DNA from: Cystobasidiomycetes sp. EMM_F5 | Taxonomy: Eukaryota | DNA: 64,000 nucleotides | Direction of reading: 5' to 3' | Assembly (NCBI GenBank): GCA_051047955.1 | Contig: JBPGPT010000026.1 | Span: forward strand, 124,001-188,000 | Part shown: positions 35,643 through 55,728 of the stretch, one piece after another | Layout of the letters: each line of letters opens with the position of its first letter | Numbering within the stretch: position 1 is the stretch's first letter | The notes under the pieces: model-generated | Told to the model about the DNA's origin: nothing | What the model saw: the letters and a program-made list of their open reading frames with translations, nothing else | Databases searched by the model: none | Program-made: the position numbers and the translations under genes

Positions 35643-38600
35643 ATGGTCGAGCAGAAGGATGCGCCAGCCAAAAGAGGGCGTCGTAGCAAAGCAGAGACTG
35701 CTGGTGCCGCTGCTACTGCTGCGGCTGCCACTGCGGCTGCTTCATCAGCTGCGAGCGTTGCCATTCCTGGACTCGGAAAGACGAGGTGCTACTGGGCCGT
35801 CATGGACAGCAACATGACATTCCGCTACCTCGACCCGGTGCTGCAGTCTCACATGCAAGAGGTGAGCTGCGTGTGTGATTTCATTGCAGAGCCAACCCGC
35901 CCAGCTGCCTGCGGTCCACCCGACCTCGACACAATCGGGATCGGATCAAGAAAAGCTCGACCACGCAATCGGACAGGCCGACACGCTTGACAACGACGGG
36001 CAAAGTAGTCGTACAGCTACGATAGCTCTCGTTCCAGCTTGCACAAGCCATGACTTGTTTGGCTGGTTCAGTCTCCACTCCCGTCCCATCCCGTTCGAAA
36101 ACTTTCTCTCCCCAAACCTCACGCACGGCGCGTTTCTCTTCGCCACATATTCTCCACACCGTTTAAACACACCTCCTTGCGCTGATATGGACGCTCTGTC
36201 TTGATTGATGGTCACAAGCTGACGCGTCTCTGTCTCTTCCACAATTGCTTTGTCATGACTGAACCCCACAGCAAGCGCCGCTGGTCATTGGCAAGAGTCT
36301 TGTCGAATTCATCCATCCTCACGAAAGGCAGGCAGCTGCAGAAGATTTTGCAAAGTTTAGATCGTCCACAACCATCTTTGGTAGCGTGACGAGGTGGGTG
36401 TTGGCCAATTTTCCGGTTTCAAGTAATGCTGATAGCATCGACCCCTTGTGACGCTTGACGAACAGATGTCGCTACGCTCGAGTATCATACGCACGCAAGT
36501 TGCTCGGAGCGGAACAACCAGAGACTGACAAGGTCAGTCCTAACTTGAAGTACTTAGACGACCAGGTGAATCGAGATTACGCACGGTGTACGCACATTGC
36601 ATCATGGAGCTGAACATCATTTTGTCAACAGTGGGTGGCCTTGCGAATTGTCGCCAGTCTGGTGGCAGAGAATACCGTTCTGGTCTTCTTCCATGCTACA
36701 GCGGGTCAGTCATATCTCATGTCGCTTCGTGCATTCTGGTGTATTGACACTAGCATCACTCGACCCAGACGTTGATGAAGCGAAAGACATGGATGATGTG
36801 AATCTCAGCGACTGGACAAACTGGTGTGGGCCTCGAGTGACAGACGTGACACGAGATTACCTCACTCCCGAGCAGAAAGAGAAGCTCAATGCAGCATTCA
36901 CTGCGTGTCAAGCTGAAGCCGAACCAATTAAGGACAATAGCGGCGGAGATGTCAGCGTGTCGGATGGAACGACATCGGGTGGAGGACAGCTCGCTTACGT
37001 CTTCCAGCTGCTCAATAGCTCGTCTGGTGATATCCTCTACACATGGCCGCCAGTCGTGCCGACCGGCAACGAAAAGGATCTGACGCTCCATGGACCAGTA
37101 GAAGAAGGGCAAGAACGCTACGTTCCAACAGATTACTCAAACCTGGCTCGTGCGGTGCTCGATAAACGAAGAGACAAGGTGGGCAATGAGGCAAAGACAT
37201 CCTGTACAAAACGCTTCCAGTCGAGGCATCCGATGTCAGTATTCTCGAGGTGCTGCTCACTCTGACAAGTCTGCTGATATGCTGGACATCTCAACAGCAG
37301 CTTGACAGACGGCGCAATTGGCAACATTGAAAGCGTCGTTGTCACGTATCAGTCTATTGCATTCGTCTGTAAGAGTTGCATCCTCGCTTCGCGGTTCATA
37401 CTTTTGAATACTGATATACTTGCTACACACAGGCTTCCAGACTGGCAACGGCTATCTCAACAGCAAGACTGTCAACCCCGGACCTGTATTGGCCAACTCC
37501 ACGAAACGTCGAGCAGGTGTCGATGATGATCTGGATGCCGATGATGTGATCAAGCGATTGAAAGCCGCAGATGCTAACGGCTCCGGACTTGGGAATTGGG
37601 CAGCCACTCTCGGAAACGATGCAAACGGATACACGGGCATGCCTCCATCTCTTGAGAATTGGGTAGCGGACAACGGTGATGCCTCCCTCAACTCGCCATA
37701 TTATGCTGGAACGGCCTACCCAAATGTCTACGCGTCCATGTACGGCCAAGGAGATGGCAGTACGAGTGGATACATGGGCAACGCAGGGGCCAGTATTCCG
37801 CCCCTACCTGGATCTGTCAATGCCAGCGGAGATGACGGGACAAATTCTGCCTTGACAAACCTAGCGATAGCCAGTTCCGGCTCGTACTATACAGACTATA
37901 CTGGCGCACAGTATCCTGTCGCCAGTGCCTCAGGGGACGGCAAGGTCCCCAATCTCGCTTACATTCCTCATCACCGCGATATCGGAACGGACGGCCAGAC
38001 TCCGACTACGGCTACTACTTCGAGGAGCAACAAGTCTGTTACTCTCGATGAGAATGGTCAGCCGGTGCCCATACTACACAAAGTCAGGAAGGCGGATCGT
38101 AACAGGGTCTGCACGAGCTGTGGTACAAGCAATAGTCCAGGTGAGACCATACATTCCCCTAACTCCTATACGATTCATGCTAATGTTTACTGCTTGCACG
38201 ACAGAATGGAGGAAAGGGCCTAGCGGCATAAAGACGCTCTGTAACGCATGCGGCTTACGTTACTCGCGAGCACAGTCCCGCAAGAACAAGAAGGCTCAAA
38301 AAGAGGCAGATCTGGCTGCAGGCATCACGGGTGGTAGCGGACCCGACAGCGCGAGCGGCACACCTACTACTTCGTATGTTCCCGCTCCACTCTCACTAGG
38401 AGCTACAGGGTCCGCTCCTACGACTCTTGAAGGACAGCCTCCTTCGCCGTACATGCCCCTCCCTGACTACAACAATCCGCATAGCGCACCCCTGCCGCCT
38501 CTCCCGCAGTCGGCTGCGTCGGTCGTTGGCAATGGTGGGGCCGCAGGATTGGGGGCTAGCACTTCCGGACCAAACTACGGCTCGTACGGCTCCTTCGTTA

Positions 38601-38686
38601 ATTATACGCCCTACGACAATTGGTCGCCAGCGAGCAATCAGTCGTTTGCCTCTCAGCAAAACCAGGCTCAACAGGGCGGGGCTTGA
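35643..38686 (+). CDS. GATA zinc-finger transcription factor with N-terminal PAS-like region
   Basis: CTSCGTSNSP/EWRKGPSGIKTLCNACGLRY; N-terminal FRYLDP...VIGKSLVEFIHPHE PAS-like segment. Confidence 0.88.
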
Positions 38687-39009
38687 TTAGATGGCAGGAC
38701 ACCATTTCGAAACTTGTCTGCGGAAGTATGCTTGTACGCCCCATTTTGGTTTCAGCCATGGTGCAAGACACTTGCGGTGCCCTTGCCAAACAGGCGATCG
38801 AACCCATTCTCTTTGTGCCATTCTTCATTAGATGTTGGTAATTTCAGTGCGGAATCTTCTGTTGCTCTAGCTGTACTCTGTAGTCTCCCTTTGGTACTTC
38901 ACGTCATACTGCAATGCATGGACGAACATCTGAGTCCGCCTTCTAAGCTAGTGAGGAGGCTAGGACATCCATAATCCGCATGATACTTTGTACACTCTAT
39001 ATAGTAACA

Positions 39010-40566
39010 TTACACGGCCAGCACGCCCTTTGTGCTCGGCACGTCATTCCCACCGGTGAGGGTGATAGCTTCTCGGAGTGCAAGAGCGAGTGCCTTGAAT
39101 GCCGACTCTGACCTATGGTGATCATTCTCTCCGCGCAGACAGTCGACGTGTAGCGTTATCCCTGCTTCCATTGCAAAGCTGTGAAATATGTGTGGAATCA
39201 TCTCGCATGATAGATCCCCAATCTTTTCGCGACGCTGCGAGTCGAACGAGGTGACAAAGTGAGGATGGTGTAATGAGGAGGGTAAAGTGAATCATAGCCA
39301 TTCAGCATCGATCGGACGGTGAGCGTATGCAGTAAAAGAAGGAGTGGTAAATTGTGGTCAGTTGACCGCATCGGACGTGTAGAGCGTGCCAAGAGTGTAT
39401 GAGAAGGGAGTGCATAATTAGTCAAGATTCCGTAGCTTCACTAAAACCAACACATACCAGCCCCAGCTCCGCCACGCAATACGGTCTGGACGAGATATCG
39501 ACCACTGCTCTACTGAGTGCCTGCATTAATGTCCGTTCAGCGAGTTTGACCTACGCTGAGCTGAGCTAACTCTGCACTCGCCTCGTCGAGTGGAGCATGA
39601 CCAGTCCCATATCGCTTTATTCCCCTCCGTTCTCCTAGAGCCTGCTTGAATGCAGCACCGAGAGCTAGCGCACAGTCCTCTGCGGAGTGATGGTCGTCTA
39701 TCCATAAATCTCCGTTACATTTCAGTTCGAGCGACATGCCTGTTGTTGCAGTGAGACGAGAAGACTAGTCAGAGAAGGTGTGCAAGGATAAATTGTGTGA
39801 AGAACGAGTGAGGTAGCCCACCACCGTGCTTTGCGAGTGCCGTGAGCATCTGTGTCGCGATACGAGCATCCGATGGAGGTGTGACGAGGATTGGAAAGGA
39901 CAGAGTGTACGATGAGAAGTATGAAAAGGATGAAAGGTAGGGCGAGATAGAATGAGACGCAGCATGCGAAGAGTATGCCATACGAAGAGTATGCCGAGTA
40001 TACAAAACATGGCGAGATGGGAAGTAATGGATAAAAGGTAGGGCGAGATAGAATGAGACGCAGCATGCGAAGGGTATAACGAGAATACAAAACATAGCGA
40101 GATGGGAAGTAAAGAATAAAAGATATGGCGAGATAGAATGAAACGCAGCATGCGAAGAGTATGCCATACGAAGAGGATGGGGTATGAGGTACAGCGAGAG
40201 AAGAAAGGGTGCGATGCGACGTAAGGAATACCGAGACGTGAAAAGGACAGAGAATTGAGACATGCGATACAAACAAGGTCAGAAAAGGACAGATACATCC
40301 AACACAACTCGCAAACGACTTGCATGATCCAGAAACCCAATTCCTGTGGCTACCTTTATAGACTGGGGACTATTCACCGACACATCGAGTGCCAGGGTGA
40401 CTGATATGTCTGTTTCGCTACAGATTCACCGCACCATTTCCCATCAGCCAGTCGTTCAGCTCAAATTGCCGTTGCATTCCACCCACGCCGTCTTTCTCGT
40501 CACTGTTGCTGTCCGGATATTCGCTGCTGACGCTGGCTTGTAGGCAGTCTCGGATGAGCCGTTCAT
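39010..40566 (-). CDS. HIS3: Imidazoleglycerol-phosphate dehydratase (6 exons)
   Basis: [69 protein letters not shown]. Confidence 0.97.
39933..40177. repeat. Degenerate minisatellite (~85-100 bp unit, ~2.6 copies) inside HIS3 intron 2
   Basis: Core GGCGAGATAGAATGARACGCAGCATGCGAAG recurs at ~39941, ~40042 and ~40127. Confidence 0.9.
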
Positions 40567-40826
40567 GGTTGTCGGTATTGTAAATTGGTCAGAGCAGAGG
40601 CAGACAGAGAGGGAGAGGGACAGGGAGCGCAAGAGCGAGCAGACAGGCTGAGGGTAGACTACCGAGTGCTCCATTGCAATGCTACAACAGACTGCACTTT
40701 CACACACAAAACGTGCATTGATGGACTGAGACATGACCACTTTACGCGAGTCTGGAGGTAGGGCTGCAGGCTGTAGACTGTGCAGCCAGTCTATGATCCT
40801 CACAGACACCTGCATAATAAGAGTGC

Positions 40827-40850
40827 TGCCTGCCTGCCTGCCTGCCTGCC
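40827..40850. repeat. (TGCC)6 microsatellite upstream of HIS3
   Basis: Read directly. Confidence 0.9.
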
Positions 40851-41486
40851 TGAATGTCTACTTGTTGCTGCATGAATCTCTCCCTCCCCATCCCGCCCCG
40901 TGAATGTTTGCATCGAGTATCCCTCCCGCCAGTCAGTCCCTCCCTCTTGCCAGCCTGGACTGCCCTGGGACCTGGGTACGGGTATCGATATACTTCAATT
41001 GTGACTTATCGGTCAGTGTCCAAGCAGTCATATCACTCTGCACCCTCGTTCAGGACTGATATTTGCCACTCGTCACCTCGCGTCGCAGCAGTTTCAAGTC
41101 GAGTGTACGCTCAGGATACGCAGAGGGTGTATCCAGTCTGTTTGAATATCCAGTATTCAGCCAGTGAGTACACAATATACGATAGCCATTCCACTCGTCC
41201 ACTCTTCACTCGACACCCCCCTATACTCATCGACACGCTCAAGAGACGAGCATTACGAGTATTCTAAAGCAAGAGTCCATCATATATACTGCCTGGACAC
41301 TGCAACCTCAGCACTCGCATCCACAGCACTGACGCCCTCAACGTCGGGCAGTCACTCTGTAATCTGTCACTCCTCAGGGGCAACAGACACGCCAGGCCAG
41401 GTACAGTCAATACTCGAGCGAACATCAAGGGAATGGTGTGGTAGAGTGTACCCAATATCATCACTCTCAATCCATCACACTCCAGC

Positions 41487-44400
41487 ATGTCCTCTGCTAT
41501 CAATCGCAACCCCGCGACGGTCGGAGAAGCTGCCGCCACTCGCACCGTGACTTCGACCCCTCGGCTTGACGTTCCCGCTCCTCTGAGCAGACTCGTTCTT
41601 GCAACCCTCGACACTGCGGACATTGGAGAGGAGGGGTTATTCCAGCATGCACAGAATGCATATGCACTAGTCGGACAGCAGACGAGCGAGCAAGATCACA
41701 CCCGTGCCTACACGGGCACAGCAGAGACCGATCAAGGCCATCCCGAGCGTAGGGGAGAGGAGGGGGAGGAGCAAGTCAGAAACGCACTTCAATATCGCAC
41801 TTTCGACAATCTACAGCCGTCTACAAACAATCTCGACTGGCCCAGCAGCGTAAGTGTTGTTGACACGCACACTCTTACAAACCCTGCCAGAGACGACGGC
41901 ACTCATTCGGAGGAGCAAGTCAGAAACGCACTTCACTATCGCACTGTCGAGACTGTACAGCCGTCTAGAAACAATCTCGACTGGCCCAGCAGCGTAAGTG
42001 CTGTCGACACGCACACTCTAACAAACCCTGCCAGAGACGACAGCACTCACTCGTCTGGCCAGCTAGTCAAGCAAAACCTGCACAGTCACCTCTCTGTCCT
42101 CACTGAAGCCCGCACGCTCACTCTCGACAGTTCGGCCCTCGACGCACTCGCACACTCTGCTAGCCTATCGCCGTTAGCTGCAGAACCGCCAGGCGCAGAT
42201 AGACAAGGGAGGGTAGAGTCTAGGGAGGCAGAGTTTAGGGAGGCAGAGTCGTCATCAGCCAGGCATTATACTCACACACACCACCAGCATCGCTCATCGT
42301 CGCAGTCAGGACATCGTACCTCGTCAAATTCAAGACATCGTACCTCGTCGCATTCAAGACAGCGTACCTCGTCGAGAGATTCGGCAAAGGAGAAAGGGTC
42401 AACATCGACATTGTTTTGGGATTCCGCAAAGGGGTCGACGTCTACATTTGCATCCCGCCCCGTTTCCACCTTTCAAGCATTTCAGTACCCAGACATTTCG
42501 GGTAGCGCAACTCCCCTCATCTACGTCTCTTCTGCAATGGAGCAGCACATCTTTCCCCCGGTCGCGAGCAGGCGACAGAAGCGAAAGCACGAGGCAATGG
42601 CAAATGAAGTGTCGGGGTTTGAGGCGAGTGGAGCGAATGGGCAAGCGACGAATGGGCAAGCGACGAACAAAGAGCGGGGCTCCACATCTGCACCGAATGG
42701 TCCGACATCGGTCGACACTCTTGCTGCAGCTGCACACGTCGCTTCGTCTTCTGGACATGCGTCTTCCAACGCCTCGGGATCAGATATGAATCGGGACGGG
42801 TCAGCAGATGGTGATGCGTCACTGATGAATGACGACGTGGAACTGGAAGAGATTGGAGAATTGGCAAACGACGATATCTACCCGTCGAATGGAGCAACAA
42901 CGTCGGCGTCAAATTCGACAAAGAGGGCAAGAGCCAAAGTGCCAGAAGAGACGACGGCGTTGCGCGCTTCAACGAGAAGAGGAAGAGGCAAGTTGAATAC
43001 CGTGGAAGCGGTGCCTTTGGTCACGCCGTCGCTGCGAGGAACGAGGGGAAGGGGACGAGGGAGAGGAAGAGGGAGAGGAAGAGCAGCACTGGCAAATGCA
43101 AGGGGTGCAGCCGATGAATTGCAGCAGAGCACTGCACAGCGAGCTTCTAGTGCTCAAGAGGACGCAGTCGGAGACGCTGTATCTGATAATCACAATACTG
43201 CGTCTGTCAGTATGGCGCCAACAACTAATGGCCAAACGACGGAAGACGCGCAAGTGGGCGCGAGTGCTAGCGCCAGTGCAGACGCAGACGCAGAAGCTGC
43301 CCCTGACCGGAATGATAATGACGATGGGGACGATGGAGGCGAAGACGAGGTGGATGTTGAGGAGGAAGTTAACAATGACGACGACGAAGAGGACGAGTAC
43401 CGAGCTGGGGCATCTGGCTCGGAAGCGGGAAGCGATTACAATCCAAACGGCAGCGCTACAAAGTCCAACAACAAAAAGCAATCTGGACGAGCACGAGGGA
43501 GTGCGAAACCTGCCGGTGGTGCTGCAAAGAGAGGACGCCCGTCGGCGGCGGCTGCCTTGCAACGCTATCTACAGCCTCCCGCCATCCCGTCGGCTTTGCA
43601 TACCGCTGCTATCGGTACGGTTGCCAGTCTGCAGCCGTTCTATAACGGTGCTAGTGCATATGCTCAGGCGGGGCCTGGTGGACAATACGGTATTCCATCG
43701 TATCCATTTGTTCCGTCTGTAATGGCGTCAGAGTATCAACCCAGTCCCGATGTCGTTTTGCGCAAACCTGCTGCGCCGCGCAAAAGCCGTCCTCGCGAAG
43801 TAGTAGGTGATACGGCAAACGCAGTCGCTGGCCCTTCAGGAACATCTGACGCATCATCTGCGTTGCCAAAGCCAAAAGTTGCGCGGTCAACCAATTCGTC
43901 AAACATTCCAAAATCATTCGTATGTACGGGCTACGAAGGCTGTAATCTCGTCTTTTCGAGATCCGAGCATCTCGCTCGACATATCCGTAAACACACGGGA
44001 GAGAAACCCTTCATGTGTCACTGCAAGCGGACATTTTCGAGAATTGACAATGTGCGTATCCAACGGTAACCTTAGAAAAGGAGAATCCAAGCTGATATAC
44101 ATTATCTCGTTTGCAGTTGAGACAGCATATGGGTACCGTGCATTCCGACAAGGTGGACTACAATGCGCAATGGCTGGAAGAGCAGTGTAATTTGCACAGC
44201 AAGATTTCAAGGGACGCATCAAAGACACATGTCGGTACACGCGATCCCGCGATGCTGGAAGCGCGGCGGCTACAAAAGCAGCGAAAACCGAATGGTTCAC
44301 AAGGCACTCCTGACTTTGACGAGGAGTCCATGGATCAATCGTTTACTCCAGATTTCTCGACGCTGGATGGGAGCATGCAACTCGGACCGAACGGTATGCT

Positions 44401-54470: not shown

Positions 54471-55728
54471 ATGGATATTGCAGACGATGTCTCTGCATAC
54501 GGCGACGAGGAGGGAGTCGGCCAGAGTGGGCAACATGATGTGGAGCAGCTGATGAAGGCATGGATGGACGAGCGGATGGCGCCGGAGCTGCTGGAGAGCA
54601 GGGAGGACGTGGTGAGGAGGATCATGGAGAACTTGGAGCAACAGGTGGGTGGGTGAGAGAAAGGCCTGAGGGCCGAAGGTCCGAAGGCCTGCGTGACGGT
54701 CCTCTCGAAGATTCTGTAGATTGTACATGTATCGTTTCATCTAATCTAATCTCTTCCTCTGCCTCTTCCTCTTCCTCTTCCTCTTCCTCTTCCTCTTCCT
54801 CTTCCTCTTCCTCCGCGTTTACCTCTCCATGCTCTATCCCTATTCATATCTCTCCTCTCCTTCCATGCCCACATCTCATCATCAGACAGAAGCAGCCAAC
54901 ATTCTCTCCAGTCGCGCATCCACAAAGGCAGACGAGCACGAGAGGATACTCCTAGTGCAAGCAGAGATTGAGAGGGTGAGGTGGCTGCTGAGAAGCTACC
55001 TGAGGGTGAGGATGGATAAGCTCGAGCGCTTTAGTGCGTACATCGTGAGGGCTGGTGAGACGGGGGAACGAGGTGGGCAAAGTGCAGTGAGGAGAAAGTT
55101 GTCGGATGTAGAGTGGGGTTATGCAGAGAGGTGGGTGTTTATTCTAAAGTGTACGAGGCTGCTCGTCAGAGGGATGTCTGTGAGGCGTGGCGGTATCTCG
55201 GGACACGCGTCAAGCTCAGCTTGGCGTGGTTTCGAGTCGTCGGGGTTACCGTGAAGCCCGACTTGACGTGACAACAAACTCAACTTGTTTAATGCCTCCT
55301 CCCGCGGAATTACAATACATCACACCCGCCTCATATACTGACTCTCTTCCATAACAGATACGCAGCTCTCGTAAAACAGCATTTCGTAACGAGCGTCACT
55401 CAAAATATCCCAGAAAGGCTAAGGCGGCTCGACGAGGAAGAGATGAGTGCGTCTCGTCCATGAGGTAACCTCAGACATACCATACTTACAATTATCACAG
55501 TCGTCAAGCCAGACCTCGAGGTTGCCGTTTTTGCCAGGGCGTTGAAAAATTGTCCAGCCATACGCTTGCCAGAGTGAGTTGCACTTATTGCATCGGAGTA
55601 TCCGCTGCTGACATATGGATCGTTTATGAAGCGGGGCCGAACTGGAAATGCAAAAGGGCAACATACACATGCTCAGATATAAAAGCATACGACGGCTGCT
55701 GAGGGACGGGGACGTCAGGCTGGTGTAG
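54471..55728 (+). CDS. SLD5: GINS complex subunit Sld5
   Basis: AWMDERMAPELL, QAEIERVRWLLRSYLRVRMDKLE, PDLEVAVF, GNIHMLRYKSIRRLL. Confidence 0.92.
54752..54811. repeat. (TCTTCC)~10 microsatellite in SLD5 intron 1
   Basis: Read directly; lies between the branch point and the acceptor. Confidence 0.9.

Follow-up and report, generated by a model that had tools for sequence, protein, structure and literature searches.

The HIS3 (IGPD) gene of Cystobasidiomycetes sp. EMM_F5 carries a 474-nt second intron in which the only consensus branch motif lies near the donor and the long tail that follows it, up to the acceptor, contains no AG. Judged from its sequence and that of its homologues, the intron is real. 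Its splicing probably begins with early branching at 40279, in a first step that would be independent of AG, and would be completed by scanning to the first AG downstream. Long introns with AG-free tails appear to form a small class in this genome, of which this is one member, rather than being a device specific to HIS3.

HIS3 occupies the minus strand of the window, the 64-kb stretch of the 18.3-Mb genome that was analysed, and is divided into six exons (Table 1). Its spliced product of 215 aa has 177 identities when aligned with P0001, the IGPD of Cystobasidium minutum, a species that also supplies the best named relative of the last exon, at 92%. Judging from the span of their matches, most of the 80 HIS3-related metagenome loci that were retained lack introns or are distant. 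Convergent with HIS3 is a zinc-finger gene (37400-38690, +) with an intron inside the finger, which we take to be of the GATA type. An 874-codon open frame at 41445-44069 (+) contains a 144-nt duplication and Ser/Arg-rich repeats, and ends in what are presumably C2H2-like zinc fingers.

Table 1. Features of the HIS3 gene, in window coordinates.
Feature	Position	Strand	Basis
Exon 1, from ATG	40487..40566	-	Spliced model aligned to P0001
Intron 1, 69 nt, GT-AG; CTGAT, branch A 26 nt from end	40418..40486	-	Spliced model
Exon 2, ending GFLDH	40324..40417	-	ORF list and spliced model
Intron 2, 474 nt, GC-AG	39850..40323	-	Homology-fixed spliced model
Intron 2 donor GCAAGT, of the GC type; +3 to +6 fit the consensus, CAT on the exon side is weak	40318..40323	-	Gene-finder donor profile
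Intron 2 sole consensus branch motif TCTGAC, predicted branch A 40279	40278..40283	-	Motif
Intron 2 AG-free zone, 456 nt, T/C-rich	39852..40307	-	Letter count
Intron 2 repeat, a unit of 85-101 nt in three diverged copies (77-91% identity)	39925..40179		Repeat and DNA search
Intron 2 weak candidate branch CTCAT, A 63 nt from end	39912..39916	-	Motif
Intron 2 weak candidate branch GTCAC, A 32 nt from end	39881..39885	-	Motif
Intron 2 acceptor CAG, first AG past the branch motif	39850..39852	-	Spliced model, gene finder
Exon 3, 28 nt (MLTALAKHG)	39822..39849	-	Spliced model
Intron 3, 82 nt	39740..39821	-	Spliced model
Exon 4 (IGPD profile 19-70)	39582..39739	-	Profile match and spliced model
Intron 4, 61 nt, also GC-AG (GCGAGT)	39521..39581	-	Spliced model
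Exon 5	39458..39520	-	Spliced model
Intron 5, 223 nt	39235..39457	-	Spliced model
Exon 6 to stop (IGPD profile 93-144)	39010..39234	-	Profile match and spliced model

The ends of intron 2 are fixed by conserved IGPD sequence, as the sequence-only reading had proposed. The GFLDH/MLTA junction aligns with P0001 without a gap and the same spacing is found in 99 of 120 homologues, the search pattern being without a match in the other 21; the junction cannot slide. Other donors were worked through by hand and rejected: a GT at +5 shifts the frame, and those at +16 or +28 keep it while inserting 5 or 9 residues, of which the 99 homologues have none. Stwintron, recursive and micro-exon arrangements were likewise rejected, since internal AGs occur only at +4 and +15. 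The length of 474 nt, the GCAAGT start, the CAG end and the 28-nt exon that follows are all as first described, and the donor consensus at +3 to +6, the terminal YAG and the restored conserved frame are those of a U2-type GC-AG intron. No Rfam family matched the region from 38500 to 41500 of the window up to an E-value of 1.

The account of the intron's interior given by the earlier reading also stands. A single CTRAY match (40282-40278), which is the single YTRAY match as well, puts the predicted branch A at +45, counted from the donor, with 429 nt between it and the intron end. The dinucleotide AG is found only at intron positions 4, 15 and 473, leaving the 456-nt zone from 40307 to 39852 free of it, and the CTRAY lies 28 nt into this zone. 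TAA is absent, TGA occurs once (position 43, within the branch motif), and the three minus frames are open across most of the intron, whose T+C content is 71%. These are the sequence features of a distant-branch intron, namely an AG-free zone of at least 100 nt with the best branch motif at its 5′ end and a pyrimidine-rich stretch thereafter. Intron 5 is, from its sequence, a second distant-branch candidate within HIS3: CTAAT lies at +37 (branch A at +40) and CTGAC at +100, the last internal AG is at +21, and the next 199 nt have no AG against about 5.7 expected. An AG 3 nt past the branch A of intron 3 is skipped in favor of an acceptor 29 nt past it, and AGs 3-7 nt past a branch motif are likewise skipped elsewhere in this genome.

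The absence of AG from intron 2 was first weighed against composition. Base shuffles of the intron contain a mean of 8.6 AGs, with a probability of 6e-5 of containing none. Relative to shuffled sequence AG is depleted, but much of the gap is explained by pyrimidine richness, with a general loss of purine pairs (AA, GA and GG are seen 3, 5 and 6 times against 9-10 expected), and by the repeat, which makes up half of the tail. Allowing for both, a hand estimate puts the probability for this intron at about 0.005-0.1. Because intron 2 alone makes a weak case, the rest of the genome was examined. The AG-free run of intron 2 is the longest in the window (458 nt vs 202 nt for the next), and among the 18 AG-free runs of at least 150 nt in 634 kb the two longest measure 630 and 458 nt. 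Eight further AG-free runs in the window (131-202 nt) were set aside as coding or intergenic by eye, unlike introns built of donor, branch and tail. A 166-nt AG-free run that follows CTAATCTAAT holds a (CTCTTC)10.5 microsatellite at 54751-54813 of the window.

Five long AG-free introns have ends fixed by protein homology: the two in HIS3 and one each in ADE13, a glycoside hydrolase gene and an oxysterol-binding gene. The last of these is a stronger case than HIS3 intron 2. It spans 762 nt (L034:4451-5212; G000:C1:134451-135212, +) in a gene with ankyrin, PH and oxysterol-binding domains, and its flanks meet at residues 100/101 of the C. minutum protein P0178, this species also being the source of the gene's best named match. 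The first CTRAYs, a tandem CTAAT/CTGAC at +135 to +145 with the first at +138, come right after the last internal AG; a further CTRAY stands some 260 nt short of the acceptor, with no other beyond it. From the very first CTRAY onward, 630 nt have no AG, where composition predicts about 22. The tail is non-repetitive by eye, with no listed tandem repeat, GA is common in it, and the loss of AG beyond composition is clear. Read in the frame of the following exon, the tail also offers about 140 codons free of stops, and it is matched by a translation, P0145, in a public Logan assembly that may derive from the same data.

The remaining examples are shorter. The ADE13 intron (L010:5148-5018) measures 131 nt, is contiguous at residues 60/61 of 5v4l and has GCTGAC at +50. 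The intron of the Glyco_hydro_cc gene (L179:634-356, 279 nt) lies at profile positions 69/71 with one split codon and has CTAAC near +46 and its last AG at +28; it adds little statistically because only about 3 AGs are expected. A homeobox-like gene has a 389-nt intron (L059:8472-8084, -) that is AG-rich in its first half, with CTGAC at about +195 by eye followed by 198 nt without AG, and a 12-nt micro-exon may lie within it. The junctions of the homeobox, NST1-like and Rsp5-like genes are assumed from reading frame and familiar motifs; neither the flanks of the homeobox, NST1-like and ADE13 introns nor the short upstream exon of the Rsp5-like gene had a usable Pfam match. GC donors are seen by eye in the L034 and L059 introns as well. 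One further gene has two consecutive long AG-free introns of 354 and 283 nt (L006:3657-3304 and 2981-2699, -), each with an AG 4-5 nt past its first branch motif. A predicted intron of 419 nt (L035:2051-2469, +) combines a 350-nt AG-free run with a CTGAC 25 nt from its acceptor. In a peptidase M48 gene (L016:6306-6187, -; Pfam positions 50/53), a 5-nt micro-exon sits between short introns.

Genome-wide trends were drawn from 624 kb, to which a self-trained gene finder was applied; its intron model was zero-order and took no account of the branch. It predicted 831 introns, with a median of 61 nt for the best 379, ten of which have GC donors. Although blind to branch motifs, it picked the acceptor at 39850 as well; it is noisy, because in HIS3 it misplaced the donor of intron 2 and, in intron 4, donor and acceptor alike. 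Among predicted introns of 50-75 nt, CTRAY is present in 222 of 391 and absent from about 43%; where present, it lies a median of 41 nt from the donor (quartiles 39-44) and 18 nt from the end. For the length classes 45-60, 60-70, 70-85, 85-110 and 110-150 nt (n = 211, 153, 56, 24 and 11), the distance from the last CTRAY to the 3′ end is 16, 21, 29, 39 and 81 nt, while that from the donor to the first CTRAY is 40, 44, 44.5, 54 and 50 nt. Branch-to-AG distance therefore grows with predicted intron length up to 150 nt, but the trend is lost above this, where the 20 predicted introns are mostly AG-rich. Of 44 predicted introns of at least 110 nt, 13 have no AG after +70, and eight of these 13 have CTRAY at +37 to +60 (HIS3 intron 2 being counted from its homology-fixed donor). 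Five of the 31 AG-rich long predictions were read; in four of them an exon seems to have been missed between short introns (one of them Pfam-backed).

Motif spacing was counted across the whole genome. The pattern GTRAGT-gap-GCTRAC gives 569 matches against 157 for a reversed control at gaps of 28-38, 231 against 411 at gaps of 50-80, and 285 against 460 at gaps of 120-150, which amounts to 52, 7.5 and 9.2 matches per spacing. Donor-branch spacing is tight, without an excess at 50-80, though much of this would be expected of any genome in which most introns are short. The corresponding GC-donor pattern gave 63 matches against 41 in the control and no clear rate. A pattern joining donor, branch and pyrimidine run gave 18 overlapping matches at seven places, of which five were read, two being long tails (279 and 129 nt) and three short introns; dropping the donor left overlapping counts that are uninformative. 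The earlier suggestion that introns here are defined by donor-branch spacing goes too far: the spacing has a tight mode near 41 nt and is no strict rule, given counter-examples at +138, +195 and +210.

In the mechanism that best accommodates these observations, HIS3 intron 2 would be an ordinary U2-type GC-AG intron whose tail grew by local tandem duplication. The three-copy repeat has no second genomic location by DNA search. U1 would recognize the GC donor, and U2 would pair with the sole consensus branch motif at +45, a spacing normal for this fungus. The first step would take place at this branch without need for a nearby AG, and the second would use as acceptor the first AG that lies beyond about 10 nt from the branch, in this intron at a distance of 429 nt. 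Selection would keep the tail free of AG, because a new AG or a better branch would lead to a shorter intron and so to loss of an essential enzyme, while repeat growth and other changes would be tolerated. The working rule of this genome may then run from the donor to the first good branch motif and on to the first usable AG, with long introns arising either through a stretch poor in branch motifs before the branch or through an AG-free stretch after it. The genome has a U2 snRNA with the standard branch-pairing GUAGUA and a U2AF65-like gene, whose separate exons score below the family cut-off; no match to U2AF35 was identified using a sequence motif, which introns could split. The U2 snRNA locus (L178:140-381; G000:C68:218639-218880, +) spans 242 nt against a 192-position model. 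The architecture proposed by the sequence-only reading, a distant branch followed by a scan to the first AG, thus recurs in unrelated genes and agrees with the genome trends, but branch use, scanning and splicing itself are what we infer from it. We judge the chances evenly poised that the spliceosome of this fungus commits at the first good branch past the donor, carries out the first step independently of the acceptor and then scans processively through 400-600 nt or more of unstructured RNA in constitutive housekeeping introns, perhaps widely among basidiomycetes.

The strongest alternative, possible though distinctly less probable, is that a weak site close to the acceptor, CTCAT or GTCAC, serves as the branch of HIS3 intron 2. 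The tail would then be free of AG partly through composition and repeat growth, and partly since an AG after TCTGAC would create a competing short intron. Candidates 63 and 32 nt from the intron end are available, and branch motifs of the CTCAT type are reported for Fusarium in the available part of one study (PMC5677156). Weak branches are in use in the present genome, because CTRAY is missing from some 43% of predicted short introns and from one AG-free intron of 120 nt. Two AG-free introns, moreover, carry CTGAC 25-34 nt from the acceptor. The depletion of AA, GA and GG along with AG in intron 2 fits this account, and a conventional long intron with a near-acceptor branch does exist between the C2 exons of an Rsp5/NEDD4-like gene (L182:609-376, -), where 234 nt of AG-rich sequence have GCTGAC 24 nt from the acceptor. 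However, a weak near-acceptor branch still needs a competent upstream motif, which is most of the preferred explanation. A CTRAY 10-40 nt from the acceptor is found in only two of the 13 AG-free long introns, whereas 57% of the short introns have a CTRAY (a hand calculation gives a binomial probability of about 0.003). The L034 run, being non-repetitive, rich in GA, about 22 AGs short of expectation and begun exactly at a CTRAY, is also poorly explained by composition and repeats.

An improbable variant keeps the distant branch but has RNA structure loop out the tail in place of scanning, as in the COF1 and UBC13 introns of Saccharomyces. Such looping is established in budding yeasts, according to the part of the work available (PMC3239191), and the centroid fold of HIS3 intron 2 pairs positions of about 5-17 with about 458-470. 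Against shuffles, though, folding gives z-scores of -1.30 for HIS3 intron 2, -1.46 for its tail and +0.74 for the L034 tail, so that neither tail is structured beyond shuffled sequence, and no inverted repeat was found in the HIS3 tail. Structured yeast tails, as far as that source describes them, hide silent AGs (PMC3239191), whereas the tails here have none.

A regulated step in histidine synthesis, raised as a possibility in the earlier reading, receives no support and is very improbable. Under it, the weak GC donor and distant acceptor of intron 2 would make retention and decay sensitive to starvation. Within a coding sequence of 648 nt HIS3 does hold a pair of GC donors as well as two introns with long AG-free tails (introns 2 and 5), retention of intron 2 would meet the in-frame TGA at +43, inside the branch motif, and human distant-branch exons often carry regulatory elements in the available account of them (PMC1431707). 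The same architecture is nevertheless found in the oxysterol-binding, ADE13 and glycoside hydrolase genes, and the tail is a young private repeat without an Rfam match. Least credible of all is an assembly error that inflated intron 2: the region does contain a tandem repeat, and one run of DNA reads covers parts of the exons and the flanks and not intron 2, but the repeat copies differ by 9-23% and are resolvable by assemblers, four other long AG-free introns are independent of the HIS3 repeat, and the L034 tail translation occurs in the Logan assembly (P0145, possibly the same data).

How a distant acceptor is found, by scanning or by looping, has been settled differently for mammals and for budding yeast. 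If early branching and scanning are correct, this fungus would be an intron-rich microbe that routinely performs mammalian-style long-range scanning in search of 3′ splice sites, which budding yeast reportedly does not. Its unstructured AG-free tails of 430-620 nt would offer a simple genetic test: HIS3 is selectable, and therefore, if scanning holds, a strain given one inserted AG should come to require histidine. Introns of this kind would be mis-called by fungal gene finders in which the branch is expected near the acceptor. AG-free tails also appear as false open frames, an example being P0145, which was called across the tail of L034.

A branch-acceptor distance of about 430 nt is not unprecedented in fungi. 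In the available text of Gahura et al. (2011; PMC3239191), distances reach 166 nt in Saccharomyces, 185 nt in K. lactis and 471 nt in Candida glabrata. The introns described here share with those of Saccharomycotina their fungal origin and a long branch-to-acceptor distance, predicted in the present case. The COF1 and UBC13 introns, however, depend on a stem, hide silent AGs and are said there not to obey scanning, whereas the tails here have neither AG nor significant structure, so that both the stem and the silent AGs that mark the structured type are missing (PMC3239191). Another fungal parallel is found in the branch-distant introns of S. pombe that depend on Sde2, Cactin and Tls1, in which a longer gap between branch and acceptor needs extra help; in the accessible part of that report the gaps are tens of nucleotides, for example 24 nt (PMC9508853). 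With typical fungal introns, as portrayed in the available part of the Fusarium study (PMC5677156; Kupfer 2004 cited therein), they share GT/GC-AG ends and a CTRAY branch. In Fusarium 83% of pyrimidine tracts lie between donor and branch, unlike the present introns, in which the pyrimidine-rich length follows the predicted branch (PMC5677156). The parts available of three further papers (PMC11913375, PMC12861292 and PMC2219887) give no branch-acceptor distances, and the literature searched, in main text and with few subscription papers among it, yielded no account of basidiomycete AG exclusion zones.

The closest resemblance is to the distant-branch introns of mammals, for which the available text of Gooding et al. 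(2006; PMC1431707) describes mapped branches 100-400 nt from the acceptor and a scanning process that skips AGs very close to the branch. As in those introns, the branch motif here stands at the 5′ end of an AG-free zone, upstream AGs occur at normal frequency, AGs close to the branch are skipped, and the tail is pyrimidine-rich and unstructured (PMC1431707). Unlike them, the introns described here belong to a basidiomycete that has introns mostly of 50-70 nt, and the predicted branch lies near the donor at normal spacing. They also join constitutive housekeeping exons and extend up to about 620 nt in L034, with branches that are predicted here and mapped in the mammalian cases (PMC1431707).
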